A program made the translations under genes and the position numbers. A stretch of DNA of 64,000 nt from an uncultured Oscillospiraceae bacterium (GTDB taxonomy: Bacteria; Bacillota; Clostridia; Oscillospirales; Oscillospiraceae), in NCBI GenBank assembly GCA_964630255.1, contig CAZVRP010000002.1, positions 1,774-65,773 of the forward strand. The letters run 5' to 3'. Below are positions 23,469-37,793 of this stretch, piece by piece. The notes below the pieces were generated by a model that was given only the letters and a program-made list of their open reading frames with translations, was not told the origin of the DNA and searched no databases. Each line of letters opens with the position of its first letter. Positions within the stretch are counted from its first letter, which is position 1.

Positions 23469-23477
23469 TATAAAAAT

Positions 23478-23506
23478 CCCAGGAGGAGCGGCAAGCTCCT
23501 CCTGGG
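23478..23506. terminator. Bidirectional terminator between convergent genes
   Basis: CCCAGGAGGAGC-ggcaa-GCTCCTCCTGGG, a 12-bp stem with T-rich runs on both sides. Confidence 0.75.
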
Positions 23507-23515
23507 GTCGTGTTT

Positions 23516-23887
23516 TTAAGCCTTAGGCTCCTCCGCCGCAGGCGTCTCCACCTCGGAGGCGGCGGCCTGGGCGGCGTCGGCGGCAGTCACGGGGGCCTCC
23601 GGCGCGACCTCTGCGGCGGCAGGCGCGGCGGGCTTCTCCTCCTCATTGAAGACCACCAGATCGTCCTCCACCTTTTTGCCGGCGTTCTCATCGATGTTCA
23701 AAACCTTCATGGCCTTTTTCTTGGCCTTACGCCACAGCACACCGGCGACAGCGCCGCCGGCCACCACCACGCCCACCACAGCCTGGATGGCGAAGGTGGT
23801 CACGGAGGGGTCTACATAGGCGTGGGCAGGCATCATGAGGATGGCGCTGAAGCAGACCATATAAAACAGGGTACGGAGAGTTTTCAA
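23516..23887 (-). CDS. Hypothetical small membrane protein (signal peptide, one TM, Ala/Pro/Glu-rich tail)
   Basis: TTG start, 8 nt after AAGGA. Sequence: KTLRTLFYMVCFSAILMMPAHA; TM AIQAVVGVVVAGGAVAGVLW; low-complexity tail. I recognise no family. Confidence 0.5.
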   Translation of the reverse strand: MKTLRTLFYMVCFSAILMMPAHAYVDPSVTTFAIQAVVGVVVAGGAVAGVLWRKAKKKAMKVLNIDENAGKKVEDDLVVFNEEEKPAAPAAAEVAPEAPVTAADAAQAAASEVETPAAEEPKA

Positions 23888-23942: not shown

Positions 23943-24731
23943 TCAAGGAAAATCTTCATAGCTTTTGTCCAGCGCCCTCAATTCCGCCAGGGTGTCGATC
24001 TCGACGATATCCCCGGGGGCGCACAGCCGCGCCCGAACGGCGTACTGATCCGGGTATAGGTTCAATGGCACCTGCTCAAAGAAGATATCCCGGCCTCCAG
24101 GCGCATTGAACGCTTCCCGGATATGACCTGCCAGTCGGGCGCCGTCCGCAGCCGTCCAGTAAGACAGCACGAACATCTGACAGCAGTCCTCTCCGCCCTT
24201 TTGCACGGACCGGATGCGGCCTTCTCCGTCCACGGTGAAGCACCAGTCGTCAGTGCGTTCCACCGGCAGGGCCAGAAAGTTGGACTCATACTGGTATTTG
24301 GTGATGAGTCCGGGATCAGACAGCAGCAAATCCGCCTCCATCACATAGGCGTTTTGCAGATGCTCCGCCGCCAGCAGCGTGGAGTAAATGGCGTTGGTCC
24401 GGGCGTACAGGCCGTTTTCAATAAATTGCACGGTCGGGTATTTTTCCAGCAGGACATTGAACATCTCCGCCTTATAGCCCCGGACGATGTATATCTCCTC
24501 AATGCCGGCGGCCGTCACCGCGTCCAGCAGAGAGTCGATGATGCGCCTTCCATGCACCGTCACCAGAGGCTTGGGAATCCGCTCTGTCAGAGGCGCCATG
24601 CGGCTGCCAAACCCGGCGGCCATGAATACGGCCCGCCGCACCCGATAAGGCTCCAGCGCCGCCAGCTCCGCCTCTGTGGCCAGGCCAAGCCGCTCTTTTC
24701 CCGTCAGCCGGTCAAACTCCGCTCTCGTCAT
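23943..24731 (-). CDS. LicC-like phospho-alcohol (phosphocholine-type) cytidylyltransferase
   Basis: The NTP-transferase motif is AVFMAAGFGSRMAPLTERIPKPLV. The LicC-like body is IVRGYKAEMF...NAIYS...MEADLL. The start overlaps the kinase gene stop. Confidence 0.75.
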   Translation of the reverse strand: MTRAEFDRLTGKERLGLATEAELAALEPYRVRRAVFMAAGFGSRMAPLTERIPKPLVTVHGRRIIDSLLDAVTAAGIEEIYIVRGYKAEMFNVLLEKYPTVQFIENGLYARTNAIYSTLLAAEHLQNAYVMEADLLLSDPGLITKYQYESNFLALPVERTDDWCFTVDGEGRIRSVQKGGEDCCQMFVLSYWTAADGARLAGHIREAFNAPGGRDIFFEQVPLNLYPDQYAVRARLCAPGDIVEIDTLAELRALDKSYEDFP

Positions 24732-25642
24732 ACCGCCGCCTCCCCATAATGGGCCATGCGCTCAAGGCTGTCCCGGGCGTAGGTGACGCCCAACAGAGCA
24801 TAGTCCCGGTAAAAGGCACGGCTATCTGGCTCCATCTTTGCCTTGAACACGCTCCAGGCGCCCCACATAATGGCCACGGCGGCACAAAAGCCGAAAAGCT
24901 CCCTGCACTCACCGGCTGTGGGCTCCCGGTCCAGATACATCCCCAGCAGCTTCACGCAGGCGGCCTCGTCCAATTCTCCGTCATGGCAGAAGTCCCCCAG
25001 GTCCTCCATGGGCACGCTGACGGCGGCGTACTCCCAGTCGATCAGAGCCGGGGTCCGGCCCGCCGGAAACAGAAAGTTGTGGGGCAGGCTGTCCCCATGG
25101 ACCACCTGGAATCGGCTCTCGTCCTCATAGAGCTTTGAGCAGGCGGCAATGACCGTCTCACGCACGTTCCAGAAATCACGGGGATAAAACTCGTTTCCAT
25201 CCACCCTCTCCACACACTGGATGTAGTACGTCAGCCGGTCCAGAGCCGTATTGCGCTTTTCTCCCCGCAGACGCAGCCCATGAAACCGGCGCAAAAGCGC
25301 CATCGCGCCGCGCAGCTCGCTTTCATCAGATGTATCGACCACATGGCAGTCCGGCCAGTACTCCGTTACACGCACACCTGTATCCGGGTCAAAATAACAT
25401 ATAATATCCGTGATGTTCTCATGCCGCAGCCGCGCATACAAGGCGCACTCCGCCCGGCGGTCGCAGAACATTTCCGTGCCCCGGCCGGGTACCCTGAGCA
25501 GATAGTCGCCCTGGTCCGTGCGGAACACATATGTATCGTTGGATATGCCTCGGCCCGGATTATCATAGGCGTCCAACACACTGTCCGGGGACATATCCAT
25601 CACCTGAAGGAACAGCTCCGTTATCTCTTTATTCACTCCCAT
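24728..25642 (-). CDS. Choline/ethanolamine-kinase-like (LicA/APH fold) kinase
   Basis: Start at MGVNKEITE (25642). Brenner motif is VVHGDSLPHNFLF. Choline-kinase motif is LIDWEYAAVSVPMEDLG. Confidence 0.75.
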   Translation of the reverse strand: MGVNKEITELFLQVMDMSPDSVLDAYDNPGRGISNDTYVFRTDQGDYLLRVPGRGTEMFCDRRAECALYARLRHENITDIICYFDPDTGVRVTEYWPDCHVVDTSDESELRGAMALLRRFHGLRLRGEKRNTALDRLTYYIQCVERVDGNEFYPRDFWNVRETVIAACSKLYEDESRFQVVHGDSLPHNFLFPAGRTPALIDWEYAAVSVPMEDLGDFCHDGELDEAACVKLLGMYLDREPTAGECRELFGFCAAVAIMWGAWSVFKAKMEPDSRAFYRDYALLGVTYARDSLERMAHYGEAAV

Positions 25643-25658
25643 GGACAAGAACCTTTCC

Positions 25659-27236
25659 TCAGATGAACGCCCTGCGGAACAGGCGGTTCCATACGCTCCG
25701 GCACAGCAGTCCCAGCGCGCCGCAGGTCTTTCCTTCAAAAAGCCTGCCCGCCAGGTATAGGGCCTTGACCCGGATAGCGCCGATATCCTCCGCCGTGAGA
25801 GGATCGCCGTCCAGGACCACAAAATCCGCGATCTTTCCCACAGTCAGGCTCCCCCGCTCCTTCTCATCAAAGCTCATATAGGCGGGGTTGTAGGTGATCA
25901 TCCGCAGGGCGTCCAGCCGGTCAAGCCTCTCATCCGGGTCTGGATGACTGGTGGAGCAGGCCATGGCCCGCAGAGGGTCCGGCCTGGTGCACGGCCCGTC
26001 CGATCCGTCCCCCATCACGATGCTCAGCCTGCTGAGGCTCCCCAGGGGGTTGAGTCTGGCCGCCCGTTCCGCGCCCAGGATGCGGTCCAAATATTCCTGT
26101 GGCTCCTGCTTCCAGTATATAAAGGGCGACTGGACCGCCAGGCACAGCCCAAGCTTCTTCACCCGCTCCATCTGGTCCGGGTGGATCATGCAGGCGTGAA
26201 TCATCACATGCCGGGCGTCGGTCCATGGCTTGTCCGCCATGGCCGCCTCATAGGCGGTGATACACTGCTCCACCGCCGCGTCGCCGATAGCATGCATGGA
26301 TATCTGCAGGCCCATCCGGTTGGCCCGGACGGCGAAGTCGCTCACCTGCTCCTGGGTGTAATAGAGTATCCCCTTGTTCTCCGGGTCGTTGGCATAGGGC
26401 TCCAGCAGCGCCGCATCCTCCGATCCGAAGCAGCCGTCCAAGGCCAGCTTGAAGCATCCCCCTACCCGGGGCAGCTTGCGTTTTTTTACCGCCTCCAGAT
26501 CCATGGTCTGGAAGAAGATACGGTATGCCTGGGGCAGACCCGGCGCCAGAATGTTTATCATATCCACATCCAGGTCCCCGGGATAGCCTACGCCCTCCAC
26601 GTTGTGAACCAGACCGATGCCCTTCTCCGCCAGAGCCGCAGCCCCCTTGGACAGGCCCCGCACCACGTCCATAATGGGGATCTTGGCCGTGACCTCGTTG
26701 ACGCCCTTGAAAAAGGCGTTCTGATACAGCCAGCCTGTCTCGGCGTCGCAGCCCGGATCGGACTTGACCTCATCGGACAGCATGGCCAGCATGGCGCTGT
26801 TGCACACGGCCGCGTGTCCGTCGTACTTCATGACCACCAGAGGACGGTCCGTCCACTTGTCCATGTCCTTCCGCTCCGGCAGACGCCCCTCCGCCACCGT
26901 GTGGGCGGAGCAGCCGTAGCCCATGAGTACTCTGGCCTTGGGGTGGGCGACGGCATAGGCGTGGACGATGGACGCCGCCTCGTCAAAGCTGGCGGCGTCC
27001 ATGAGATAAAAGGTCTGCTCAAAGGTGCACAGGGACTCAAAGTGCATGTGGGTGTCTCCAAAGGCAGGAGTCACCACAGTCCCGCCCAGATCAACGCGCC
27101 GGGCGCTCTGATACCGCGCCGGAACGTCGTCAGCCTCCCCCAGCCAGACAATCCGCCCCTTTTTCACCGCCATGGCGGTGAAAAACCGATTCTCCGGTTC
27201 GCAGGAGATGAACCTCGCATTGGTATAAAGCTCCAT
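25659..27236 (-). CDS. Amidohydrolase-3 (YtcJ-like metal-dependent hydrolase)
   Basis: 525 aa. N-terminal metal motif is PAFGDTHMHF. Further motifs are ...SMHAIGDAAV... and ...VLDGDPL at the C-terminus. Confidence 0.8.
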   Translation of the reverse strand: MELYTNARFISCEPENRFFTAMAVKKGRIVWLGEADDVPARYQSARRVDLGGTVVTPAFGDTHMHFESLCTFEQTFYLMDAASFDEAASIVHAYAVAHPKARVLMGYGCSAHTVAEGRLPERKDMDKWTDRPLVVMKYDGHAAVCNSAMLAMLSDEVKSDPGCDAETGWLYQNAFFKGVNEVTAKIPIMDVVRGLSKGAAALAEKGIGLVHNVEGVGYPGDLDVDMINILAPGLPQAYRIFFQTMDLEAVKKRKLPRVGGCFKLALDGCFGSEDAALLEPYANDPENKGILYYTQEQVSDFAVRANRMGLQISMHAIGDAAVEQCITAYEAAMADKPWTDARHVMIHACMIHPDQMERVKKLGLCLAVQSPFIYWKQEPQEYLDRILGAERAARLNPLGSLSRLSIVMGDGSDGPCTRPDPLRAMACSTSHPDPDERLDRLDALRMITYNPAYMSFDEKERGSLTVGKIADFVVLDGDPLTAEDIGAIRVKALYLAGRLFEGKTCGALGLLCRSVWNRLFRRAFI

Positions 27237-27250
27237 GCCGCTATCCTCCC

Positions 27251-29059
27251 TCAGCCGATATGTATCTGCTCCAGAGCGTCATACAGCGCCTGGTTGTCCG
27301 TCTCGTCCCGGACGGCCAGACGGATGAAGTCCCCGCCGCCGAAGCCGTTTTTTGCTGACAGGTCCTTGATGAGCAGATCGTTATTTTTCAAAAGCATATT
27401 GGCCAAATCCTTGGAGCGTATGCCCTCCACCCGGCACATGATGTAGTTGGCCTGCGAGGGATAGGGCTTCAAAAAGGGGAAGGAGGCCAGTTTTTCCGCC
27501 ATCTTGGTCCGCTGGCGGACGATCTCGTCGCAGGCCGCCTCGTAATGGGCGGCGTACAGACCGTAGATCTGGAAGAAATACTCACCAAAGGAGTTGATGT
27601 TCCAGATGGGCAGCAGACCGCGCAGTTTCTCCATCCAGGCCCGGTCGGCGCAGGCGGCCACACCCAGCCGCAGGCCGGGGACGCCATAGCTCTTGCTGAC
27701 GCTCTTGATCACCATCATGTTGGGGTATGTTTCCAGGATTTCATTGTCCAGCAGGGTGAACCGCATCGGTCCTTCAGCAAAATCCACGAAGGACTCGTCC
27801 ACCACGAACCTCGTCCCGTACTCCCGGCAGATCTCCGCCAGCTCCAGGACCTGCTCCCGGGTCAAAAACGCGCCGCTGGGATTGTCGGGATTGATGATGA
27901 CCAGCTCGTCCATCTCCCGGGCGGCCCGGCGAAGCTCGTCCATGTCGAAGCGGTAATCATGGGCCGCTCCGTTCAGGGGGACGATCTCACACTTGGGGAA
28001 GCAGCGGATATACTCGTTGAAGGCGGGGATGGAAATGGCCATGCGCCCTTTGACCGTCCGGCCCAGGGCATTAATGAGCTCGGCGGCGCCGTTGCCCGCC
28101 AAAAGATAGTCCTCCTTCACCCCGAACATCTTCCCCGCCACCAGCTTCTGCACATACATACCAGAGGGGTAGTCCGTCAGGAGGGTATGGAAGAAATACT
28201 CCATCTGCCTGACCATTTTGGGAGGTGGAAAATAGGGATTGACCAGATAGCAGAAATCCTTCAGGCCGTTGAACCGCCAATAGCCTCCAAAGTGGAGTTC
28301 ATAGGCCCGGAGCCGGTCCTCGTCGGCGGCGAAGAGGGTATTGGCGATGTCCAGGTCCTGCACATCGTCGATCTCATACCATTTCATATCCCCCATCTCA
28401 AACGCCTTGAGTCCGGCGAAGGGCAGATGGGCCAGGGCCTTGAGGACCATCTCATAGTATTGGTTCTCCCCATAGGCGCGGATGTATGCTTCCATGAACG
28501 GCAAATACTGCTTCCGGGAGAACGCCCGGCTGAATTTATAGACGTTCACCGTCTTATAGTACTGGTCGGCGCTGTCGAAGCGGAAATCCTTTTTCTCCAC
28601 GAACTCCCGGATGACGCCGTCCTCCCCCACCAAAGTCATGGTGCCGTCCATCCACTGCTCGAACTTGGCCACCGCCACCATATTGGGTTCCGGCGCGTCC
28701 ACCATGCGGCGGATGAGCGACCGATCATAGATCAGGTCGGATTCCAGCAGGATGGTATCATCCCGGGCCAGCTGCTCCCGGGCCAGATACAGAGAATAGA
28801 TATTATTGGTGCTGGCATAGTCCGGGTTTTCCACGAATTCCAGCTCAAAATCCCCCAGCTTCTCCCGGGCGAACGCTTGCAGCTTCTCGCCCTCATAGCC
28901 TGTCACGATGACGAATTTATGTATGCCCGCCAGGCGCAGCGCGTCCGCCGCATGCTCCAGCAGCGTCTGTCCGCCCACCTTCACCATGCACTTGGTCTGA
29001 CCGTCCGTATAGGCGCCCAGACGCTTGCCCATGCCGGCCGCCAGCATCAATGCCTGCAT
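27251..29059 (-). CDS. Bifunctional N-terminal nucleotidyltransferase / C-terminal class I-II PLP enzyme (HisC/CobD fold)
   Basis: The N-terminus is MQALMLAAGMGKRLGAYTDGQTKCMVKV (NTP-transferase G-loop). The C-terminal half has the PLP-lysine region IKSVSKSYGVPGLRLGVAAC, plus NPDNPSG. Confidence 0.8.
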   Translation of the reverse strand: MQALMLAAGMGKRLGAYTDGQTKCMVKVGGQTLLEHAADALRLAGIHKFVIVTGYEGEKLQAFAREKLGDFELEFVENPDYASTNNIYSLYLAREQLARDDTILLESDLIYDRSLIRRMVDAPEPNMVAVAKFEQWMDGTMTLVGEDGVIREFVEKKDFRFDSADQYYKTVNVYKFSRAFSRKQYLPFMEAYIRAYGENQYYEMVLKALAHLPFAGLKAFEMGDMKWYEIDDVQDLDIANTLFAADEDRLRAYELHFGGYWRFNGLKDFCYLVNPYFPPPKMVRQMEYFFHTLLTDYPSGMYVQKLVAGKMFGVKEDYLLAGNGAAELINALGRTVKGRMAISIPAFNEYIRCFPKCEIVPLNGAAHDYRFDMDELRRAAREMDELVIINPDNPSGAFLTREQVLELAEICREYGTRFVVDESFVDFAEGPMRFTLLDNEILETYPNMMVIKSVSKSYGVPGLRLGVAACADRAWMEKLRGLLPIWNINSFGEYFFQIYGLYAAHYEAACDEIVRQRTKMAEKLASFPFLKPYPSQANYIMCRVEGIRSKDLANMLLKNNDLLIKDLSAKNGFGGGDFIRLAVRDETDNQALYDALEQIHIG

Positions 29060-29078
29060 ATCATCCGCTCCCCTTTCA

Positions 29079-29876
29079 TCAATCTTCCCGGAGCAAACGG
29101 GCGTACAACCCTAAAAAATCGTAGCCCATCCGCCGGTGCAGAGACAGGGTGTTCTCATTTTCCGCCCCCAGAAAGGCAAGTCCGCGCTTTCCCTCCCGCA
29201 GCACCAGATTCCATGTACTGGCGGTGATGGCCCGGCCCAGTCCCCTGCCCCGGAGCTCTGTATCCGTGACCAAGCCGCTGATGACGGCCAGCTCCTCCGT
29301 CTCCGCGCTGGTGGCGTTGGTGGCCACCAGGCGGCCTGTCTCGTCCCGCATGACGAACAGGCGGCCAAAGCCGGTCTTCAAGCGGTCCGTGAGCTGCTGA
29401 CACAGGCTCTCATAGGTGTAGACGCTGTTATAGATCGGCTCCTTCATCATCAGAGCCGCGATCTCCGGCACATCGGCCATGCCCGCCTGCCGCACGGCCA
29501 GGTCGGACCTTCCGTCCATCAGGCGGCTGGTGGTGATGATATGGCTCAGCTCATAGGCGTACGTATCCTTCGTCTTTCCCAGCAGCTTGTCGATCGTCGC
29601 CTGAGAACCGGTGACGCACTTGGGCCGCAGCTCGTCTATCAGGCCCAGGGCGTCGCGCCAAGGGAACTTGTCCCGGCTGTAGAGATGCAGAGTGTCAAAA
29701 TACCGGTAGGCCACGCCCTCGATCTCCTCGCCGTCCCCGCTGATCCAAAGGCCCACATCCGGACCCTGTGCGCCGCATTCCAGCAGGTCCATATAGAGAT
29801 AGAAGCACTGGAACTTGCCCTCGCCTATGTACTCCACCACCTGGGGGATATAAGAATCGTCACATTTGATCGTCAC
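29079..29876 (-). CDS. GNAT family acetyltransferase
   Basis: The C-terminal acetyl-CoA motif is ISGLVTDTELRGRGLGRAITAST...LHRRMGY. Confidence 0.65.
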   Translation of the reverse strand: MTIKCDDSYIPQVVEYIGEGKFQCFYLYMDLLECGAQGPDVGLWISGDGEEIEGVAYRYFDTLHLYSRDKFPWRDALGLIDELRPKCVTGSQATIDKLLGKTKDTYAYELSHIITTSRLMDGRSDLAVRQAGMADVPEIAALMMKEPIYNSVYTYESLCQQLTDRLKTGFGRLFVMRDETGRLVATNATSAETEELAVISGLVTDTELRGRGLGRAITASTWNLVLREGKRGLAFLGAENENTLSLHRRMGYDFLGLYARLLRED

Positions 29877-29879
29877 GGC

Positions 29880-31769
29880 TCAGATTTCCCTTTCCTTCTT
29901 TTGATTTTCCAGCATCCGCCCGATGAGGTATTGGGCGGCGCATTTTCCGCTCTCGCCGAAGTTATATATCCGCTCCCGGCGCACCTGCTCCAGCGTCTCG
30001 GCCCACTCCCTGCGGCCGGACACCATGCCGTCGGCGGTCGCCGCCGCCTTTTTCCGGACCTCTCCCGGCTCCAGGGCCACGCCGATGACGCTCCGTATCT
30101 TCGCGTCCGGGGCGCACCGGGCGATGTCCTCATCGGACCAGTCCTCGTTCACCCGCTTCTGAGGGGTGTTGATGAACAGCACCGGCTTTTTCGTCGCCAG
30201 GGCGTACTCATAGCCGATGTTGGACCAATCCGTCACCAGCACATCCGCCGCGAACACCGTCTCATTGGAGCTGAAATTCAGCTGGAAACGGAAGCGGGCC
30301 GCGTCATAGTTCCTGCAGTCCGCCATGAGCTTTTCCAGCCGCTGGGGGAAGCGGCGTATGTACTGGGGATGAGGCCGGACCGTCACATCGTATCCCGCAG
30401 CCAGAAGGGGCTCCGCCAGATCGGCGAGGCAGCTCTCCAGAATGTTCCCCGCCTGCCAGGAGGGCGCGATCAGCACCGTCTTCACAGCGTGCACGGTCTT
30501 TTCCATCCGGTCATACTCCGCCGCCATGTTATCCACCACGCCATAGCCGCAGGGCACCAGCTTCTGGTCGGGCAGGCCGTATTTTTCGTTGTAGCCCCGC
30601 ATCTCCACGTCGAAGCCGGGCGTGGGGGTCAGCAGGGTGTCGAAGTGGTCCAGCGCGCCCTTGCGCAGCGTCACAAGGCCGGAAAAGATGCCGTGGAACA
30701 CATACACGTACTCGATGTCCTTGCGGACGTAGCTGCGCTTATAGTGATAGGTGTTCAGATCCGGCATGGTCATCAAAACGATGTCCGCGTCCATCTTCAT
30801 GAACAGGGTGATGAGCCGCCGCTCGCCGATATAATAAGGCTGGATACGCGGCTCCTTTTCCGCGATGGCGAATATCTGATCTTCCGGGTCGCTGGTGACA
30901 TAGTTTATCACCACGTTCGTCCGGGCCAGCAGCGCCTCGATGATGTTCTGGAAATATTTATAAAAACCGCTGGCCTCGGAATAGAACACCAGCCGCTTGT
31001 TGGCCACGGAGAAGAACCGCTTGTAATCGGCCTTCTCCCGCTTTTTCAGTTCTTTTGTCTGGGCCTGTCCAAACTGATCCAGATCCGCCAGCTCTTTCCG
31101 GCTTTGTTCCAGCGCCTCATAGTCCACATACTTTTTCGGCGGCATGACGGCGTTGCAGGCCAGCTGCACCAGGATGGAGAACAGGTTGGAGAATATCCAG
31201 TACAGCGCCACGCCTGTGGAAACAAAAATACCCAGCACAAAGGATATGCCAACGGATACGCCGTTGGTGGACATCTGTTCCGCCCGGCTCTGCTCCCGCT
31301 GGAGGGGATTGATCCGGTTCTGGGCAAAGCTCAGCACAATGGCCGCCAGGCCCGCTCCCAATGGCATGAGCCAGGTCCAGCCCCCGTCCCGGCAGGGGAT
31401 GAGGCCCAGCTTGGGCGCCGCGCCGGAGTCAGTGATGGTGTGGATGACCCCGATGAGTCCCAGAAGGATGATGATCTGGATGACCAGGGGGATCATGCTC
31501 AGAAGGGGCCGGTAATGGTGGCGCTTGTACAGCGCCGCCTGCTCGTCTCCGATGCGCTCCCGGTCGCCGTAATACTCCGCCTTGATGCGGTTCACATCCG
31601 GCATGATGGACACCATCTTCAGGCCGTTGGCGTTGGTCCACAGGGACACAGGCATCAGGATGATCTTCGTCAGCAGCGTGAACAGGGCGATCGCCGCCAC
31701 ATAGTTGGGTACCAGGGCGTAGCACCAATCCATCACATAGCCCAGGATACCCGCCAGAAAATCGATCAT
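29880..31769 (-). CDS. Fusion protein: N-terminal YidC/Oxa1 insertase domain + C-terminal TagB/TagF-type CDP-glycerol glycerophosphotransferase domain
   Basis: - Residues 1 to about 215 are YidC-like: NYVAAIALFTLLTKIILMPVSL, MPDVNRIKAEYYGD, PLLSMIPLVIQIIILLGL, GVALYWIFSNLFSILVQ.
- Residues from about 265 to 629 are TagF-like: VLIAPSWQ, VTVRPHPQ, VLVTDWSNIGYEYALATKKPVLFI. Confidence 0.85.
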   Translation of the reverse strand: MIDFLAGILGYVMDWCYALVPNYVAAIALFTLLTKIILMPVSLWTNANGLKMVSIMPDVNRIKAEYYGDRERIGDEQAALYKRHHYRPLLSMIPLVIQIIILLGLIGVIHTITDSGAAPKLGLIPCRDGGWTWLMPLGAGLAAIVLSFAQNRINPLQREQSRAEQMSTNGVSVGISFVLGIFVSTGVALYWIFSNLFSILVQLACNAVMPPKKYVDYEALEQSRKELADLDQFGQAQTKELKKREKADYKRFFSVANKRLVFYSEASGFYKYFQNIIEALLARTNVVINYVTSDPEDQIFAIAEKEPRIQPYYIGERRLITLFMKMDADIVLMTMPDLNTYHYKRSYVRKDIEYVYVFHGIFSGLVTLRKGALDHFDTLLTPTPGFDVEMRGYNEKYGLPDQKLVPCGYGVVDNMAAEYDRMEKTVHAVKTVLIAPSWQAGNILESCLADLAEPLLAAGYDVTVRPHPQYIRRFPQRLEKLMADCRNYDAARFRFQLNFSSNETVFAADVLVTDWSNIGYEYALATKKPVLFINTPQKRVNEDWSDEDIARCAPDAKIRSVIGVALEPGEVRKKAAATADGMVSGRREWAETLEQVRRERIYNFGESGKCAAQYLIGRMLENQKKEREI

Positions 31770-31793
31770 TCGTTCATCTCTCCGTTTGCGCCA

Positions 31794-33557
31794 TTAATAG
31801 AAGGAGTCATACAACGGCTCAATGGCGTCGGCCACGCCATAATAATACCAGTACCGCTCCTTGCTCATGATGGTATCCCGGTCGCCGTCATAGCGGAAAG
31901 TGCCGAAGACGTTGTACCGCTCGACGCCGTTGGCCTCCGCATCCCACTGGTCGATGTTGCCGATCCACTCCACCTCCGGGTAGCTGCGCATGTATCCCCA
32001 GACAGAGGTGGTGCGCATGCGGTGATCACCCTCCTCCCAATCATAGACGGTGGTGCCGTCGCAGTAATCGCTGTAATCCCCGCCCACCAGGGACAGGATG
32101 GTGGGGATGATATCCCCCTGGGCCACGGGAGCGCTGGTGGTGGTGAATTCCTCAAAGGTCTGGCCGGGCAGCTTGATGAGGAAGGCCGCCTGGAAGCACT
32201 CAAAGTATCCATGGTCGGCGGATATGATGATGGTGGCGTCGTCGTATACGCCGATCTGCTTCAGCTGGTCAAAATATTCCTCCAGGGCCAGAAGATAGCC
32301 GTGGAGCTGGTCCTCCCGGTTGGTCTCGTCCTCATCGCAGAGGTAGCCGTCATAGTCCACCACATAGGGGAAGTGAGCGCCCTGCATGTGATACCAGTTG
32401 AAGACCTTATGGTCATCGGTGAGGGTCAGCCCCTCCTCCTGGAGCGCCTCATAGAAGTCATAGTTGATGCGCAGCTTGGTCACGCCCTGATAGGCGGAGA
32501 CATCCACGATACCGCCGGTAGAGACGCAGAAAGGATTTTTCAGGATAGTAGGCATATAGCGGTACAGGGACATATCTATCAAAAACTCAAAAAACTGAGG
32601 CGTGATGACCAGATCCCCGGCCTCCACGATATTATCAGCCTTGCCCAGCATGTTCTCCGCGCCCAGGGCGGCGTAGTTGGACTCCAGGAACAGGTTCACC
32701 TGATACCCGTTTTCATGGAGCGTGTCATAGAAATTGTCGGCCTTCTCGCTGTGCCAGGCGTTGTATACCGCCTCCCTGGTGGGCACGGTGAGGTCCAGCT
32801 CATTGCCGGTGAGAAGGTACATCAAAGACGGGAAGGTGAAGGAGTACCGGGAGGACATGTTATCAAAATACAGAAAGTCCTTGAACACATCATAGAAGTG
32901 GGGGTCCCGCTCCAGCGCCTCCTCAAAGATGAGGGGAGAAAGCTGGTCAAGGGTCAGCACCAGGATATTTTCATCGCTGGAGAGGGTAAACTGCTCCTCC
33001 CCGGACAACTGGTAGTTGGGGACACTGTCGTCCTTGGGCACCCAGGTGGTCGCAAGGCTGACTCCCTGGGCCACGACCAGCGCTGCGCAGACGATGAAGC
33101 CGGCCGTACGCATGATATCCGGGAAAAACCAACCCAATGCCATGATCGCCAAAATACATATAGTCCATATAGCCAGGTTCTTATAGGCCGCCGGCGCATC
33201 GCCGCGCCAGTCGAACTCCGTACCGTCCAGTGTCCCCAGGTCGCCGTTGAGCAAAGCGCCCTGGAAATAGAAGAGCACAGAGATGCCCAGCAGCAGAGCA
33301 AACGCCAGGCGGTGGGCCTTGCCGGGGATGAGGGCGAACACCGCCGCAATCACGACAGACGCCGCAACCGTCACCCACGCAACGGAGAACAAAAGATCTC
33401 CGGCGGCGAAGGTCAGATACATCTGGTTGGCGTTCACGATATCCAGCGGGCCGAAAAACACACCTGTAAAGCACAGGAAAAACGCGGGAACGAGCAGCGT
33501 CAAAAACCGCTTGAGCCACCCTTTCCAATATCCGCCCCTTACCTTTTTCTCCTCCAT
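31794..33557 (-). CDS. LtaS/sulfatase-family membrane phosphotransferase
   Basis: The ATG at 33557 follows GGGAGG. It has five N-terminal TM segments and an extracellular sulfatase domain (LVLTLDQLSP, YSFTFPSLMYLLTG, IIISADHGY). Confidence 0.8.
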   Translation of the reverse strand: MEEKKVRGGYWKGWLKRFLTLLVPAFFLCFTGVFFGPLDIVNANQMYLTFAAGDLLFSVAWVTVAASVVIAAVFALIPGKAHRLAFALLLGISVLFYFQGALLNGDLGTLDGTEFDWRGDAPAAYKNLAIWTICILAIMALGWFFPDIMRTAGFIVCAALVVAQGVSLATTWVPKDDSVPNYQLSGEEQFTLSSDENILVLTLDQLSPLIFEEALERDPHFYDVFKDFLYFDNMSSRYSFTFPSLMYLLTGNELDLTVPTREAVYNAWHSEKADNFYDTLHENGYQVNLFLESNYAALGAENMLGKADNIVEAGDLVITPQFFEFLIDMSLYRYMPTILKNPFCVSTGGIVDVSAYQGVTKLRINYDFYEALQEEGLTLTDDHKVFNWYHMQGAHFPYVVDYDGYLCDEDETNREDQLHGYLLALEEYFDQLKQIGVYDDATIIISADHGYFECFQAAFLIKLPGQTFEEFTTTSAPVAQGDIIPTILSLVGGDYSDYCDGTTVYDWEEGDHRMRTTSVWGYMRSYPEVEWIGNIDQWDAEANGVERYNVFGTFRYDGDRDTIMSKERYWYYYGVADAIEPLYDSFY

Positions 33558-33806
33558 GGGACTATAAACCTCCCTGTTGACTTTTTCTTTGTAGCCTTGG
33601 CGCACATCATAAACAAATAGTAATATTTTTCGCTTTGCATACGACACACATTATACTACTATTTTACAACATTAAAATAATATCATGATTTTTCGCGGAT
33701 TACAACCTATTTTATGACAGTGCGCGATTTCCGCCGTTCTTCCGGGGGCAAAATGGGGGATTTTTGCAGGCAGGCAAGATTTTTCATCCATACGTGAACT
33801 TACCTA

Positions 33807-33835
33807 TTGACGGATGCCGGGAAAAAATTTATAAT
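33807..33835 (+). promoter_or_regulatory. Near-consensus sigma-A promoter (TTGACG-17-TATAAT) for the divergent acyltransferase
   Basis: TTGACGgatgccgggaaaaaattTATAAT, about 70 nt before the ATG at 33908. Confidence 0.6.
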
Positions 33836-33907
33836 TTCTTCATGAAATCTTAATGTTGTGGGGCGCAGCTTATGTCGCCCCGCAGCTATGTACAAGGAGT
33901 GTTCACC

Positions 33908-34948
33908 ATGCCGACTCTCGCCGCACCGCTGCAAGCACCCGCTCCCGCCGCCAGAAAGCGCTGGTGGCGGGCCGACAATATCCGCTGGATATTGCTTTTC
34001 AACGTCATCGCGGAGCACATGCTCACCCAGACGGACATCACCTACAACTGGCTGGTGACCGTGCTGGTGTGCTGGTCCCGCATGATAACCATGCCCGCCT
34101 TCTGCTTTTTGTCCGGGTACTTCTCCAAGAAAGGCGATAAGAGCTATCAGAGCGCTATTTTCGACTTTTTGATACCATATATCATCTTTGACACTCTGTT
34201 CGCGGCGATATTCGGCAGCTCCTCGCCCAACATCTTCTCCCCCACCTTCGCCTACTGGTATCTGCTTTGCATGTTCTGCTGGAAGATCATGACCAAGGCC
34301 CTGCAGCAGATCAAGTACATCATCCCGCTGAGCATCATTGTGGCCCTGCTTGTAGGCGGCCTGGACGATGTTGACCATTTCCTCAGTCTGAGCCGGACCA
34401 TCGGTTTCCTGCCTTTCTATGTGGTGGGCATGAAGATGAGCCGGGAGGACGTGGCCAAGCTGGAGAAGCTGCCCAAGCTCCCTGTACTGGCGGTGACCCT
34501 GGCTGTGATGGCGGTCTGGGGCTGGCTGAATGTCAAGGAATACTTCCACATCGATTTTTACTACTACTGGATGCCCTACAGCGGGGACGATACCTACTGC
34601 TATACCTTCTGGTACGGCTTCATGCTCCGGGCTCTTGGCTATGTGGTCAGCGGGCTTTTGATCGTTTTTCTGTTCTGCATGGTGCCGGATAAGTCCCTGC
34701 CCGTCATCCGGGACGGCGGCACCCGCACCATGGTCCCCTATCTGCTGCATACATACTTCATCATGAACATGAAATACCTTTACAGCTTTGTGCCCGCCCT
34801 GAACCACTGGTTCATCACCATCCCCATCGCCCTGGCCATGGGCGTGTTCCTGCTGTGGCTGCTGGGTCTGCCGGCACTGGACGAGCTATACAAGGACCTG
34901 ATGAAGTTTATAAAAAAGCTCCTTTACAAGGAGCCGGAAAAAAACTGA
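33908..34948 (+). CDS. Acyltransferase-3 family membrane O-acyltransferase
   Basis: The ATG at 33908 follows AAGGAG. Sequence: RADNIRWILLFNVIAEHML...MPAFCFLSGYF. About 10 TM segments. Confidence 0.75.
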   Translation: MPTLAAPLQAPAPAARKRWWRADNIRWILLFNVIAEHMLTQTDITYNWLVTVLVCWSRMITMPAFCFLSGYFSKKGDKSYQSAIFDFLIPYIIFDTLFAAIFGSSSPNIFSPTFAYWYLLCMFCWKIMTKALQQIKYIIPLSIIVALLVGGLDDVDHFLSLSRTIGFLPFYVVGMKMSREDVAKLEKLPKLPVLAVTLAVMAVWGWLNVKEYFHIDFYYYWMPYSGDDTYCYTFWYGFMLRALGYVVSGLLIVFLFCMVPDKSLPVIRDGGTRTMVPYLLHTYFIMNMKYLYSFVPALNHWFITIPIALAMGVFLLWLLGLPALDELYKDLMKFIKKLLYKEPEKN

Positions 34949-34960
34949 ACGCCTGGACGC

Positions 34961-35000
34961 AGAACACGGCCGCTCCCCTTCCTGGGGGCGGCCGTGTTCT
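34961..35000. terminator. Long hairpin between convergent genes (probable bidirectional terminator, weak U tract)
   Basis: AGAACACGGCCGC...GCGGCCGTGTTCT, a 13-bp stem with an inner CCCC/GGGG extension. Confidence 0.5.
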
Positions 35001-35025
35001 TATCCCGACATTCTTATCGCAAATA

Positions 35026-35595
35026 TCAGGTCTTCTCTCCGGTCGGAGCCTCGTCCCGGTGGAAACGCACGGCGCCGGTGCGGTCCAGCGCTACCATGAT
35101 GGCGGGGATGAGGATCAGCTGCAGGACAATGCCCGGAATGGCGGTCAAAAACGCGCCGGAGACGAACATCTGCCACGTGAACGCCTCGCCGCCCACGCCG
35201 CTGAGGATCGCCCGGGCCGCGGCCCAAACCACCCGGCCGCCCAGCATGGCGGCCACAAGGGCCTTATACAGGGTCCGCAAACACTGCCAGCGGGAACGGC
35301 TGTATAAAAAGCCCGCGATGGAACCGTAGGCCGCCAGCTCGAACGCCATGGCGATGGCCGTGGGGTAAAGGACCGGCATACCGAACAGAAGCGACCTCAG
35401 CAGCGGCGTGATAAAGCCCAGCACAAGCCCATACTGCCAGCCGCAGATGAGGCCGCACAGAAACACGGGAAAGTGCATGGGGCAGAGCATATTGCCGATC
35501 TGAGGTATCTGCCCGGTGATGAACGGAAGAACGAGGCCGATAGCCAGGAACATAGCCGAAAGGACAAGATTTTTGGTGCGGTGCTTCATATTCAT
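35026..35595 (-). CDS. ECF transporter S component (substrate unknown)
   Basis: 189 aa, six TM segments: LVLSAMFLAIGLVLPFITGQIPQIGNMLCPMHFPVFLCGLICGWQYG. No ecfA/ecfT genes are adjacent. Confidence 0.75.
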   Translation of the reverse strand: MNMKHRTKNLVLSAMFLAIGLVLPFITGQIPQIGNMLCPMHFPVFLCGLICGWQYGLVLGFITPLLRSLLFGMPVLYPTAIAMAFELAAYGSIAGFLYSRSRWQCLRTLYKALVAAMLGGRVVWAAARAILSGVGGEAFTWQMFVSGAFLTAIPGIVLQLILIPAIMVALDRTGAVRFHRDEAPTGEKT

Positions 35596-35720
35596 GCTTG
35601 GTTCTCCTTATCAAAAGTCATTGATCGCCGTCCTTCTGGTCGGCCGTGCCTTCCTGGCTTTTTTACGGAGCGCCTGGGGTATGAGCCTCCCCTGCCGCCT
35701 TCCTGACGGCGGGAACCGCT

Positions 35721-36287
35721 TTAAGGGAACAGTCTGCTCGTGTTGATTATAATGCTGTCCGCCCCGGTTTGGCAAGAGCGAAAATACATCTCCTCCATAG
35801 GAATCCATATATCCTGAAACGCCTGGAAACGCGTTCCCTCCCGTCTCATCAGCCGGCGGCGCTGCACATCGCTTCCGCAGGTGAGAAATATCTTCACATC
35901 ATACAGATCCGCGAGGCGGGGATGGTGGGAATAGCTGCCCTCTATCACTGTTAGCGGGCGCGGCGGCACGGTCACGGACGTTTTGCTCCTCCACGGACGG
36001 TAATCCACCGGCTGTCCCTCGCGGGCCGGGAGGAGCACCTCCCGCCGGACGCGGTCCAGGTCCATATTCCCCGCCGGGATATTCTCCCAATCGGGGTCGC
36101 GCCGGTCAAAGGGCATATAAAAATCGTCCATGTGGAAAACCCGGCAGGAAAACCGCGCCTCCATGGCGGCGGCCAAGGCCGTCTTTCCGCTGCCGCACCG
36201 GCCGTCGATGGCGGCGATCACCGGCGTCCCCGCCGTCAGGGCGGCCTCCACCGCCGCCATGGCCGGAGCAAAGCCCTCCCCGTTCAT
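35721..36287 (-). CDS. Uridine-kinase/PRK-family P-loop kinase
   Basis: 188 aa from MNGEGF. P-loop is AAIDGRCGSGKTALA. Colinear with Udk: VIEGSY...LADLYDVKIFLTCGSDVQRRRLMRR. Confidence 0.65.
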   Translation of the reverse strand: MNGEGFAPAMAAVEAALTAGTPVIAAIDGRCGSGKTALAAAMEARFSCRVFHMDDFYMPFDRRDPDWENIPAGNMDLDRVRREVLLPAREGQPVDYRPWRSKTSVTVPPRPLTVIEGSYSHHPRLADLYDVKIFLTCGSDVQRRRLMRREGTRFQAFQDIWIPMEEMYFRSCQTGADSIIINTSRLFP

Positions 36288-36289
36288 GC

Positions 36290-36721
36290 TCACGGGGCCA
36301 TCAGCGCTTTGACGTGGCCCGCCGCCCGGCGGAGGTACTCCTCCAGCCGGAGCTCCTCCGTTCCGGCTACGAAGACTCCGCAGGTGGAGGTGGGGATCAG
36401 GATCTTCACCGCCTCCGAGCCTGACACGGCGGCCGCCATAGCGGGGGACACCTCGCCCATGATGCCGTTGGCCAGGATCATGCCGATGGGACCAAGGATG
36501 ATATCTGCCCATCCAGCGTTGCAGATGACGGCGTTCTCCCCCGTCGCGCCCCGGGCTGCGCCGGCCTTGAGCATGGCGCTGGTGGCCATCACATTGGTTC
36601 CCACGCACACCAGTTCCCAGCCGTCGGGCAGTTCCTTTGCCAGAAGGCGCACCAGCTGCGCGCCGATGCCGCCGCCCTGGCCGTCCAGGACCAGGACCCG
36701 CCGCACTTCCTTATGCTTCAT
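36290..36721 (-). CDS. DUF3842-like protein
   Basis: 143 aa: VLVLDGQGGGIGAQLVRLL...GTNVMATSAMLKAGAARGATGENAVI...ILGPIGMILANGIMGE. The family was assigned from memory of the motif pattern. Confidence 0.55.
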   Translation of the reverse strand: MKHKEVRRVLVLDGQGGGIGAQLVRLLAKELPDGWELVCVGTNVMATSAMLKAGAARGATGENAVICNAGWADIILGPIGMILANGIMGEVSPAMAAAVSGSEAVKILIPTSTCGVFVAGTEELRLEEYLRRAAGHVKALMAP

Positions 36722-37793
36722 GGGGCACCACCCGCTTTCCGCGTCCAGGATCAAGCGCCGCCGTGGTGAGTACCGACAGCACAAAGCACGCCGGGGCGCA
36801 CACAAGGCACATGGTCCAAATATCCGAGTCCGGGAAAAAATACATATAGGGATAGATGACCACCAGATTATTGAGAAAATAGGCGTAGCTCTGATGGCCC
36901 AGCCAAACGGACAGCCGGTTGTCAAACAGCCTGGAAAACAGGCTTCTGCCCCGAAAGACGCTGATGACGAAGGCGAAAAACAGTATCACGAAAAGGAAGT
37001 CATACTTTCCGGAGTTGGAGTACATCCAAAGCGCGGAGGCCATCATCACCGCCAGTTCCAGCACCGTGGCGATCAGTCCCTCCCGCGGCAGCGTCACATC
37101 CTCCATCCACTCGTACACCCGGTAGGCGATGGCGCCCACGGTGATATCCGCAAACCCCCGGTAAAACCCCATAAACGGCGCGTACTGGGTAAAGATGATA
37201 GTGTTGGCCAGGCTCCCCTTCCTGTCAAAGATGGTGCCGTATATGAGCGCCAGCAGCACCGGCGCCAGGATCTTCAAAAACACGTCCTCGTGCCTGACCA
37301 GCAAATAGTAGATGATCAGGCTGGAAAACAGCAGCGCGCTCAGATACCAGCAGACGATGTTTATGTATTCGTTGCGCACGAAGCCGAACACATTCACCAG
37401 CAGAAGCTCCGCCCAGCCGATCTGAAACAGCTCCCGCAGCCGCAGCTCCTTTGTGAGCAGCATGATGGCCGCCACCATGCACCAGCTCAGCAAATGATGG
37501 GGATACAGGATCTTCACCCGCCGCTTCATGTAATCCACCGTGAGGGCCACGCCGTCCACAGCCTGTCCTCTCGGGACGCGGCGGCGGATGGATCGCAGCA
37601 TCAGAAAGCCGCTCAGGATGAAATACAGCTCCACGAACAGGTAGAATCCCACGAAAACGCCGTCCTCCTGGTCCCGGAAAGCGAAGAAGTAGCAGTGATA
37701 GCACAATATCATCACCGCGCACACAAAGCGGTAAAACTCCATGGCCCGGCACGGCTTGTCCGCGCTGTTCTGTTTTTGCATGGGCGGCCTCAT
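36711..37793 (-). CDS. Acyltransferase-3 family membrane protein
   Basis: FYRFVCAVMILCYHCYFF...LFVELYFILSGFLM. Polytopic. The start overlaps the upstream stop (ATGA). Confidence 0.7.
   Translation of the reverse strand: MRPPMQKQNSADKPCRAMEFYRFVCAVMILCYHCYFFAFRDQEDGVFVGFYLFVELYFILSGFLMLRSIRRRVPRGQAVDGVALTVDYMKRRVKILYPHHLLSWCMVAAIMLLTKELRLRELFQIGWAELLLVNVFGFVRNEYINIVCWYLSALLFSSLIIYYLLVRHEDVFLKILAPVLLALIYGTIFDRKGSLANTIIFTQYAPFMGFYRGFADITVGAIAYRVYEWMEDVTLPREGLIATVLELAVMMASALWMYSNSGKYDFLFVILFFAFVISVFRGRSLFSRLFDNRLSVWLGHQSYAYFLNNLVVIYPYMYFFPDSDIWTMCLVCAPACFVLSVLTTAALDPGRGKRVVPHEA

Follow-up and report, generated by a model that had tools for sequence, protein, structure and literature searches.

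A candidate phospho-amino-alcohol envelope decoration operon linking YidC-, TagF- and LtaS/EptA-like domains in an uncultured Oscillospiraceae bacterium

Introduction

Phosphocholine, phosphoethanolamine and aminoethylphosphonate decorations control how bacterial surfaces are recognised by host immunity, antimicrobial peptides and phages. Enzymes of the LtaS and EptA type take phosphoglycerol or phosphoethanolamine from a lipid and attach it to an acceptor in the envelope. Here we analyse a minus-strand operon in a 64-kb stretch of DNA (hereafter the window, meaning the whole stretch) on contig CAZVRP010000002.1 of an uncultured Oscillospiraceae bacterium, which encodes a distant relative of LtaS and EptA together with a YidC/Oxa1-type domain fused to a TagF-like domain (YidC::TagF), a GNAT acyltransferase, a nucleotidyltransferase fused to a CobD-like pyridoxal phosphate (PLP) enzyme (NTP::CobD) and a small membrane protein. 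We propose that the operon specifies a system for decorating the envelope with a phospho-amino-alcohol, for example that of ethanolamine, through cytoplasmic, membrane and outer-face steps, a reading to which we give an even chance of being right. The further proposal that the YidC/Oxa1 domain is a dedicated translocator, coupling the TagF-like and LtaS/EptA-like transferases and fed by a kinase-independent route to cytidine diphosphate (CDP)-ethanolamine, is more tentative, and we regard it as possible rather than probable.

Several described systems share parts of this arrangement. The Lic pathway has in common with the operon a LicC-type cytidylyltransferase, a LicA-type kinase (here encoded in an accessory cassette) and a CDP-alcohol donor for a single decoration; it differs in that LicB and LicD were not seen in the window and in that the core phospho-alcohol would here be made de novo by the PLP enzyme and not by a kinase. 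The PntC::AEP-transaminase of Treponema denticola (6PD1; Rice et al. 2019, PMC6697681; AEP, 2-aminoethylphosphonate) resembles NTP::CobD in that a cytidylyltransferase is fused to a PLP enzyme that makes its substrate; both proteins carry an ESD motif, and both appear to be directed to the cell surface. The PLP partner is a class V transaminase in the former, whereas that of NTP::CobD is of the class I/II decarboxylase type; furthermore, no phosphoenolpyruvate (PEP) mutase is linked in the window and the product predicted here is a phosphate ester, not a phosphonate.

In C. difficile, the FtaABCD proteins of the Type A pathway of flagellin modification make CDP-threonine, the amine of which is methylated by FtaC on the conjugate before the TagF-like FtaD carries out the transfer (bioRxiv 10.64898/2026.02.12.704994). 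By analogy, the operon may likewise activate a small amino compound with CDP, tailor its amine and transfer it to a hydroxyl by means of a TagF-like enzyme of the non-CDP-AP-motif kind. The two systems differ in that the Fta substrate is threonine, with its carboxylate, tailoring is by a methyltransferase and the acceptor is GlcNAc on cytoplasmic flagellin; FtaABCD also lacks the fused PLP decarboxylase, the YidC-like domain and the outer-face sulfatase-fold transferase that are predicted for the operon. As for the PLP enzyme itself, the C-terminal domain of NTP::CobD is closest in sequence to CobD and SMUL_1544 and the PLP-lysine motif is kept, whereas NTP::CobD scores under the CobD cut-off, is fused to a nucleotidyltransferase and appears to sit in envelope rather than cobamide loci.

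At the membrane, LtaS, EptA (MCR-1) and PbgA share with the sulfatase-fold protein of the operon five transmembrane (TM) helices followed by an outer-face domain, the metal ligands and a Thr-type nucleophile position; the operon protein differs in being very distant from them, in being tied genetically to a CDP-alcohol pathway and a YidC-like domain, and in having Treponema counterparts that are fused to YidC. A further analogy is offered by three-component glycosylation systems (GtrA/GtrB/GtrC and CsbB/GtcA/YfhO), with cytoplasmic loading of a lipid carrier, flipping by a small protein and transfer at the outer face. These handle a sugar with a GtrA-type flipper and a GT-C enzyme, whereas the operon would handle a phospho-alcohol with a YidC/Oxa1-type domain and an enzyme of the alkaline-phosphatase fold.

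Results

A conserved gene block and two fusion partners of the YidC-like domain

The genes of the operon, in order of transcription, and the gene divergent from it are as follows:

31794-33557, minus strand: LtaS/EptA-like transferase, 587 aa (Pfam Sulfatase/Phosphodiest)
29880-31769, minus strand: YidC::TagF-like fusion, 629 aa (60KD_IMP and Glyphos_transf)
29079-29876, minus strand: GNAT acyltransferase, 265 aa (Pfam FR47 and Acetyltransf_1)
27251-29059, minus strand: NTP::CobD-like fusion, 602 aa (NTP_transf_3 and Aminotran_1_2)
25659-27236, minus strand: Amidohydro_3 hydrolase, 525 aa, first gene of the cassette (Pfam)
24728-25648, minus strand: LicA-like kinase, 306 aa, second gene of the cassette (Pfam APH, Choline_kinase)
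23943-24731, minus strand: LicC-like cytidylyltransferase, 262 aa, third gene of the cassette (NTP_transferase; match to LicC 1jyk)
23516-23887, minus strand: small membrane protein, 123 aa (signal peptide and one TM segment)
33872-34948, plus strand, divergent: Acyl_transf_3 membrane O-acyltransferase (Pfam)

To compare this arrangement across genomes we anchored a scan on NTP::CobD, a protein with more than 8000 homologues; relatives were found at 296 genome loci, from which 80 species-level loci were kept (L numbers denote the loci and contigs compared). Close relatives were compared by tblastn with nine window proteins, and the TagF-like and sulfatase-fold families were counted with family-specific hidden Markov models (HMMs) within 6 kb of NTP::CobD. 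The comparative conclusions are drawn from these tblastn and HMM matches, not from greedy open reading frame (ORF) maps, which mis-called some high-GC loci.

Close relatives among the Oscillospiraceae keep a constant block made up of the divergent Acyl_transf_3 gene and the genes for the sulfatase-fold protein, YidC::TagF, the GNAT, NTP::CobD and the small protein. A reading made earlier from the sequence alone had expected all seven genes from the sulfatase-fold gene to the LicC-like gene to travel together, with two activation enzymes, a kinase and a deacylase at the core of the system. Neighbourhood comparison did not bear this out. The trio of amidohydrolase, LicA-like kinase and LicC-like enzyme was found among related loci in L002, L003 and L016 besides the window, and in the metagenome contig L082, where it lies between the sulfatase-fold gene and the Acyl_transf_3 gene; it is absent from L007, L009, L010, L048 and L075, in which the small gene directly follows NTP::CobD. 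Since the trio is missing from most close relatives and occupies another slot in L082, it is an accessory cassette, repeatedly tied to the locus but not defining it, so that neither the second activation enzyme nor the kinase nor the proposed deacylase belongs to the core. The conserved unit consists of the LtaS/EptA-like protein, the YidC::TagF-like protein, the GNAT, the NTP::CobD-like protein and the small membrane protein.

The membrane components of this unit recur well beyond the Oscillospiraceae. The TagF-like subfamily lies near NTP::CobD in 36 of the 80 loci (a count for this subfamily only, its HMM missing canonical TagF, as in L065), the sulfatase-fold subfamily in 32 and both in 31, and about 20 of the loci with these subfamilies belong to Treponema or other spirochaetes. 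The partner to which YidC is fused differs between lineages: it is TagF in 16 loci, from Oscillospiraceae, Christensenellaceae and other Clostridia, whereas in at least 12, from Treponema and other spirochaetes, it is the sulfatase-fold protein. The spirochaete gene order comprises a protein of about 900 aa, a TagF-like protein of about 410 aa and NTP::CobD, and the first of these combines a 60KD_IMP domain (3.6e-22) with a region belonging to the sulfatase-fold family (hhalign 98.7%). Because YidC is thus fused to TagF in some phyla and to the sulfatase-fold protein in others, the three membrane components are likely to act together with the CDP-donor synthase; this fusion ('Rosetta stone') pattern is the strongest evidence for such joint action. 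The earlier suggestion that YidC and the LtaS-like protein supply the translocation and transfer steps is strengthened by it, the same subfamilies flanking NTP::CobD in some 20 spirochaetes with YidC swapped onto the sulfatase-fold protein. Five Treponema loci (L049, L052, L054, L064 and L074) have two to three tandem YidC::sulfatase-fold paralogues for each pair of TagF-like protein and NTP::CobD, which could mean several acceptor specificities served by one donor.

NTP::CobD as a predicted kinase-independent donor synthase

NTP::CobD joins an N-terminal LicC/PntC-like nucleotidyltransferase to a C-terminal CobD-like class I/II PLP domain. The closest solved structures to the N-terminal domain include LicC (1jyk, 2e-14) and PntC (6pd1, 4e-11); its G-x-G-x-R nucleotidyltransferase motif is conserved, and its motif ILLESDLIYD is matched by LLLESDLIYD in T. 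denticola PntC. In that enzyme Glu104 contacts the primary amine of 2-aminoethylphosphonate, and LicC has the smaller Asp105 at this position (PMC6697681). Both nucleotidyltransferase domains of the operon have Glu at the LicC Asp105 position and are PntC-like in this respect (V-M-E-A-D in the cassette enzyme, L-L-E-S-D in the fusion).

The PLP domain is matched by Aminotran_1_2 in Pfam (100 bits), and its invariant PLP lysine, K456, lies in the conserved motif S-K-S-Y-G-V-P-G-L-R-L-G, where it aligns with that of the 'SLTKFYAIPGLRLG' motif in CobD. The top NCBIfam match is CobD (TIGR01140) at 175.2 bits, with hisC at 124 bits; because the former score lies under the 290.55-bit equivalog cut-off, we class the domain by its sequence as CobD-like and not as CobD proper. 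Its nearest solved relative is 6oux (5e-43), followed by Salmonella CobD (1lc5, 2e-28). We take SMUL_1544 to be an L-serine O-phosphate decarboxylase that yields ethanolamine phosphate. The molecule name of 6oux, 'threonine phosphate decarboxylase-like enzyme', is the annotation used for SMUL_1544, a gene that governs norcobamide biosynthesis. The PLP domain is accordingly annotated here as a predicted O-phospho-amino-acid decarboxylase. A role in histidine biosynthesis was considered and ruled out for this domain, because the window already has a genuine hisC (58761-59831) in its his operon.

The head group to be activated is probably small, as the PntC-like ESD motif, the relationship to 6oux and the phosphonate neighbour of NTP::CobD in L051 (AEP being the analogue of phosphoethanolamine) suggest. 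These observations raise the question of whether the head group might itself be a phosphonate, 2-aminoethylphosphonate or a relative, with a phosphonate precursor as the substrate of the PLP domain and a nucleotidyltransferase domain that works as PntC does. Beyond the ESD motif, this reading is favoured by Ppm and Ppd genes beside NTP::CobD: in Treponema L051 (1101-7413) the gene adjoins a complete phosphonate cluster (CTP_transf::Ppm, Ppd and PntC::AEP transaminase), in Lawsonibacter L021 (4314-16140) it adjoins NTP::CTP_transf::Ppm, Fe-ADH and Ppd, and in both a phosphate-ester and a phosphonate head-group pathway appear to be combined in one locus. However, the PntC::AEP-transaminase fusion that L051 already has beside NTP::CobD implies a distinct substrate for the latter, and a Pfam-confirmed PEP mutase lies beside NTP::CobD in only two of the 80 loci (L029 and L074 are further motif matches, unchecked). 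As no PEP mutase motif occurs in the 64-kb window, a phosphonate pathway was rejected for it, and a phosphonate head group seems to us very improbable altogether.

The YidC::TagF-like fusion

The YidC::TagF protein consists of a YidC/Oxa1-type core of five TM helices (about residues 1-215) and a TagF-like GT-B domain (about 255-629). The 60KD_IMP profile matches residues 23-206 at 103.8 bits against a cut-off of 35 and is covered from position 1 to 162 of 163, and TIGR03592 scores 90.6 against 84.3 bits; Glyphos_transf matches residues 394-533 at 32.7 bits against a cut-off of 22.1, over profile positions 150-292 only. In an AlphaFold 2 (AF2) model (predicted local distance difference test score, pLDDT, 87) the YidC core is complete, and a soluble GT-B domain comes after it. 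Foldseek relates the protein to TagF-like capsule polymerases (8qoy/8a0c) and TarL (8va1), and its YidC domain to E. coli YidC (6al2, root-mean-square deviation 3.8 over 213 columns). More than 100 fused homologues exist, annotated 'YidC' only, and K35, H359 (in F-H-G), R465-P-H467-P and T513-D-W-S516 are invariant in 30 of them. TagF-type enzymes have two catalytic or pyrophosphate-binding histidines and a TDYSS-like motif. We presume H359 and H467 to correspond to TagF H444 and H584, an equation made by motif resemblance and not by residue-level structural alignment.

YidC proteins are usually oriented with the N-terminus out and the C-terminus in. With this orientation assumed, a TagF-like domain that follows a YidC core starting at residue 1 fits a cytoplasmic location in the model. 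The Arg in the groove is important in Gram-positive YidC. It is not kept here: at the position that we equate with it, five residues before a conserved Pro, Firmicute fusions have an invariant Lys (K35) and Treponema YidC::sulfatase fusions have Thr.

What the TagF-like domain makes is a separate matter. The sequence-only reading had placed all seven enzymes in the synthesis of a glycerophosphate-type polymer bearing an unusual, possibly N-acetylated phospho-amino-alcohol, with two activation enzymes. The Glyphos_transf match and the TagF/TarL-like fold would suit a polymerase, as would the tight gene packing and the fact that, among solved structures, a profile search places LtaS enzymes nearest to the sulfatase-fold protein. 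Several findings run the other way. The trio that contains the second nucleotidyltransferase is accessory, and neither a CDP-glycerol synthase nor TagO, TagA or TagGH was found in the scanned window ORFs; specifically, no TagD (CTP_transf_like) or IspD-type TarI synthase was seen in the operon or among those ORFs. The TagF subfamily is divergent, co-occurs with NTP::CobD and is also present in Treponema, and the predicted products of decarboxylating phosphoserine or phosphothreonine (ethanolamine or aminopropanol phosphate) lack a second hydroxyl for chain growth. Elsewhere, NTP::CobD is paired with other transferases: LicD, a phosphotransferase that uses CDP-alcohols, stands beside it in seven of the 80 loci, among them a capsule-type locus of Bacteroides that also has Wzx and GT2 genes and a C. 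clostridioforme locus with a GNAT homologue, and in Ancylomarina a canonical TagF with an upstream YfhO-like protein does so. The LicD partnering makes a single phospho-alcohol decoration the better model, and we consider the polymer improbable.

The absence of the usual partners, as noted earlier from the sequence, held up within the scope of our scan. Among about 48 window ORFs (some small ORFs being left out), no TagO/TagA/TagD-, Wzx/Wzy- or TagGH-type Pfam family was found, nor was a choline permease (LicB) or LicD family, and an HMM built from two LicD sequences had no match in the window.

For the YidC-like domain, a role other than protein insertion has indirect support. Glycerophospholipids were scrambled in vitro by E. 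coli YidC and in simulations by every Oxa1-family insertase tested, B. subtilis MisCB among them, and the groove residue differs in the fusions as described above. The same cytoplasmic chemistry could, though, proceed with YidC as an anchor, dedicated insertase or scaffold and not as a lipid translocator; the TagF-like domain would then decorate a lipid-linked glycan inside the cell, an unlinked flippase or ABC transporter would export it, and the reaction of the sulfatase-fold protein would be separate. The completeness of the YidC core, with a Pfam score far over the threshold, argues for such a role, as do the likeness of the small protein to a YidC-only substrate (signal peptide, short acidic loop, TM segment and basic tail), the N-terminal TM anchor that Treponema TagF-like proteins possess of their own, and a type-I ABC exporter pair 8 kb away. 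On the other hand, since YidC is joined to one enzyme in some phyla and to the other elsewhere, it seems to bridge two catalytic steps and not to serve a single partner, the groove Arg is replaced by Thr in the Treponema fusions, and no dedicated flippase is conserved in the locus. Weighing these, we think a purely structural or insertase role unlikely, though it is the main alternative to our reading.

The LtaS/EptA-like sulfatase-fold protein

The 587-aa protein has a basic N-terminus and five TM helices, followed by an extracytoplasmic domain of the alkaline-phosphatase fold (AF2, pLDDT 88.9). Its Sulfatase/Phosphodiest Pfam matches are weak, and its best full-length Foldseek matches are PbgA (6xlp), EptA (5fgn) and MCR-1 (9nww); with a family profile, LtaS (2w5q) is best among solved structures (4e-10, over about 90 residues). 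D448-H449 and H395 align with the DH motif and the conserved His of LtaS, and D204 aligns weakly, in a 0.5-bit stretch, with the Glu of LtaS HLESFQ. Together with T241, these residues are invariant in 34 homologues. T241 lies in T-F-P-S-L, no formylglycine motif (C/S-x-P-x-R) is present, and from its spacing we infer that T241 is the candidate nucleophile. As the LtaS equivalog NF053595 scores 18 bits against a cut-off of 970 bits, we classify the protein as a distant member of the LtaS/EptA type and not as an LtaS orthologue; its narrow family comprises 123 matches.

That EptA and LtaS use phospholipid donors also lends some colour to a different end product, namely a membrane phospholipid. 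In such a scheme the TagF-like domain would make an (N-acyl)phosphatidylethanolamine-like lipid from a CDP-amino-alcohol and diacylglycerol, YidC would scramble it and the sulfatase-fold enzyme would remodel or consume it. LPG_synthase_C-type genes lie near, in the window (16529-17560) and in L015, and some NTP::CobD loci look metabolic and not glycan-related. Diacylglycerol is nevertheless not a known substrate of TagF-family enzymes, the LicD partners of NTP::CobD are found in capsule-type loci with Wzx and glycosyltransferases, and the association with Acyl_transf_3 suggests a glycan target, all of which leaves a phospholipid product decidedly improbable.

The GNAT, the small membrane protein and the divergent acyltransferase

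The GNAT fold occupies the C-terminal half of the 265-aa protein. In Oscillospiraceae the gene is kept between YidC::TagF and NTP::CobD, and a GNAT homologue adjoins NTP::CobD in the LicD-type locus L036, while L018 has an OCD/mu-crystallin enzyme in place of the GNAT. Depending on lineage, then, the neighbour of NTP::CobD is of the GNAT, OCD/mu-crystallin or Octopine_DH type. Such alternation would be expected of a product with a free primary amine; the predicted head group would then carry a modifiable amine, acylated or reductively alkylated by lineage, and the GNAT is probably the enzyme that tailors this nitrogen on the amino-alcohol. A literature search for N-carboxyethyl or N-acetyl substituents on ethanolamine phosphate found nothing relevant. 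OCD/mu-crystallin or Octopine_DH genes stand beside NTP::CobD at 8867-9814 in L018, 11809-12750 in L046, 11803-12924 in L065 and 6553-7500 in L021; in these species the amino-alcohol phosphate may therefore be converted to opine-type (N-carboxyalkyl) derivatives.

The small protein has a signal peptide (A-x-A), one TM segment, a basic RKAKKK stretch and an acidic tail, and matches no Pfam or NCBIfam family. It is encoded in 15 related loci, normally right after NTP::CobD where the cassette is absent. The mature N-terminus reads Y-V-D-P-S-V-T-T-F-A-I-Q in the window, and the pattern Y-[VIL]-D-P-S-x-T-x-[FY]-A-I-Q is near-invariant from Oscillospiraceae to Christensenellaceae, as is a cytoplasmic motif I-D-E-N-A-G-K...E-D-D.

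The product of the divergent gene matches Acyl_transf_3 at 32.9 bits. Such a gene lies upstream and divergent in L003, L005, L007-L010, L016, L024 and L075, and is adjacent in L082.

The accessory cassette

The first cassette protein matches Amidohydro_3 at 214 bits, its nearest solved structures (3icj and 3igh) being uncharacterised; no TM segment or signal peptide was predicted in it, and we annotate it as a predicted cytoplasmic metal-dependent hydrolase. A 70%-identical amidohydrolase is very common in human-gut contigs (L083-L161), where neither kinase nor LicC-like genes accompany it, and given these stand-alone homologues the enzyme also works outside the operon. The kinase, assigned to the choline/ethanolamine family, scores 40.7 bits with Choline_kinase against a cut-off of 29 and has relatives in 3dxq and LicA (4r77, 2e-14). 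Its motifs HGDSLPHNFLF (residue 184) and LIDWEYA (residue 202), already recognised by the sequence-only reading, were both found. The LicC-like enzyme, the start of which overlaps the kinase stop by 4 nucleotides, matches LicC 1jyk over its full length (3e-22); on account of the Glu at its LicC Asp105 position, choline is mildly disfavoured as a substrate, the Asp of LicC being the residue that leaves space for a trimethylammonium group. In L023 the gene immediately preceding NTP::CobD encodes a 54%-identical LicC-like homologue with a helix-turn-helix (HTH) domain. The cassette slot between NTP::CobD and the small gene is filled in L004, L005 (12033-15251) and L008 by a 1072-aa ORF for which no Pfam match was found.

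Transcription signals and genomic context

Two further features bear on transcription:

23476-23508, both strands: bidirectional intrinsic terminator (stem and T-runs)
33558-33871, both strands: divergent promoter region (consensus matches only)

The tightly packed minus-strand operon and the domains named in the earlier reading are confirmed by Pfam and NCBIfam, and the gaps between its eight genes in succession measure 24, 3, 19, 14, 10, -4 and 55 nucleotides. Shine-Dalgarno-like sequences precede most starts, and independent gene calls on the identical public (Logan) contig give the same operon genes. The terminator has a stem of 12-14 bp with 9 G-C pairs and T-runs on both strands, and is the sole strong terminator of the region. 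Because it sits right after the small gene, directly 3' of it, that gene is probably part of the transcription unit, which would make the unit eight genes long and not seven. In the divergent region, a promoter-like site for the acyltransferase on the plus strand (33807-33835; TTGACG-17-TATAAT) matches 11 of 12 consensus bases, in agreement with the near-consensus promoter noted before, and a weaker site for the operon lies on the minus strand (33705-33677; TTGTAA-17-TATTAT, with a TG extended -10); both are sequence matches. An Rfam scan of 22-37 kb found no riboswitch or leader element.

The window has a GC content of about 61% and encodes SpoVAD/SpoVAC and SpoIIIA, as befits a high-GC, spore-forming member of the Clostridia, and the nearest homologues carry the name 'MAG: Oscillospiraceae bacterium'; its other genes are of a housekeeping nature (NAD kinase, DXS, IspA, exonuclease VII, SpoIIIA, PheST, hydrogenase and the his operon). 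GC falls to 0.54-0.57 across 32001-36000, which takes in the sulfatase-fold gene, the divergent promoters and the acyltransferase, against 0.60-0.65 in the flanks. A second Acyl_transf_3 acyltransferase (36711-37793, minus strand) lies 1.8 kb past the divergent one, with an ECF-transporter S component and small DUF3842-type genes between the two.

On the other side of the operon, the type-I ABC exporter half-transporter pair (12258-16011, plus strand), 8 kb from it, is followed by genes for an LPG_synthase_C-like protein that has no flippase part (16529-17560, plus strand) and a GNAT (17466-18407, plus strand); in aminoacyl-phosphatidylglycerol synthases, LPG_synthase_C forms the C-terminal domain. 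Similar neighbours occur in two of the compared loci: in L015 the sulfatase-fold gene is followed by one for LPG_synthase_C, and in L023 an ABC exporter pair comes after NTP::CobD. The link of these genes to the operon may reflect chance or function. Still nearer lies a gene for an 854-aa EF-G-like GTPase (GTP_EFTU, EFG_III, EFG_IV and EFG_C) with a C-terminal YacP-like NYN nuclease (18654-21218, plus strand), which adjoins a gene for a YlmH-type RNA-binding protein (21218-21964, plus strand), stop and start codons touching. This suggests a ribosome-associated role in RNA cleavage or rescue for the GTPase::NYN fusion.

Discussion

Taken together, these analyses support the earlier view of an envelope-modification operon built around a nucleotide-activated phospho-amino-alcohol. 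In the scheme that we propose, the PLP domain of NTP::CobD would decarboxylate O-phospho-L-serine to phosphoethanolamine, the most economical substrate to judge by homology, with O-phospho-L-threonine, giving aminopropanol phosphate, as the main alternative; phosphoserine is favoured because most NTP::CobD loci contain no kinase and phosphoserine is a ubiquitous metabolite. The fused LicC/PntC-like domain would use cytidine triphosphate (CTP) to convert this product to CDP-ethanolamine or a close analogue, with no kinase needed. The GNAT would modify the free amine, probably on the CDP conjugate, as gene association and the analogy with FtaC suggest, and an opine-dehydrogenase-like enzyme would take its place in other species. 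At the cytoplasmic side of the membrane, the TagF-like domain would take the phospho-alcohol from its CDP donor and attach it to a hydroxyl of a membrane-bound lipid or lipid-linked glycan; a lipid-linked product is proposed because the LtaS/EptA relatives take their phospho-alcohol from a lipid donor. The five-TM YidC-like domain would, hypothetically, translocate this lipid-linked intermediate, so that at the outer face the LtaS/EptA-like enzyme, acting through its metal site and Thr nucleophile, could hand the phospho-alcohol on to the final envelope acceptor, with the small membrane protein as an accessory subunit or substrate. Where present, the cassette would feed the same transferases by salvage, the hydrolase freeing an ethanolamine- or choline-like amino-alcohol, the kinase phosphorylating it and the LicC-like enzyme cytidylylating it. 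This scheme is built on homology, conserved catalytic residues, topology and gene and domain association, and is otherwise inferred.

A number of observations weigh against it. The PLP domain falls under the CobD cut-off (175 against 290 bits) and has strong HisC family matches as well, and it could be an aminotransferase or use another phospho-amino acid. The insertase core of the YidC-like domain is intact, and in Firmicutes its groove still has a positive charge (Lys), so that the domain could simply insert or scaffold membrane partners such as the procoat-like small protein. The roles given to the GNAT and the amidohydrolase come from association alone, and salvage as the function of the trio is a guess. 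Furthermore, L020 and L023 have importers and HTH-fused LicC/LicA genes beside NTP::CobD and no transferase, from which it follows that NTP::CobD serves other contexts too.

The chemistry proposed is a variant of known phospho-alcohol decoration (Lic, Pnt, Fta and EptA/LtaS). A literature search found no description of the NTP::CobD fusion, of a link between YidC and TagF or LtaS, or of a bacterial route from phosphoserine to CDP-ethanolamine, and the annotations of homologues go no further than 'YidC', 'sulfatase-like hydrolase/transferase' or 'aminotransferase class I/II'. Both the three-part architecture with its YidC link and the fusion of a decarboxylase to a cytidylyltransferase appear to be new, and there is a substantial chance that the role of YidC is new in kind.

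The module occurs widely among uncultured Oscillospiraceae of the gut and among Treponema. If the proposal is right, bacteria would have a kinase-free route to donors of the CDP-ethanolamine type and a new pairing of donor and transferase, that of a TagF-like with an LtaS/EptA-like enzyme. It would also provide a natural case of a YidC/Oxa1-family domain acting on a lipid-linked small molecule and not on proteins, so that the scramblase activity recently proposed for insertases could be tested in a physiological setting, and would define a new class of envelope-decoration machine common to gut Clostridia and spirochaetes.

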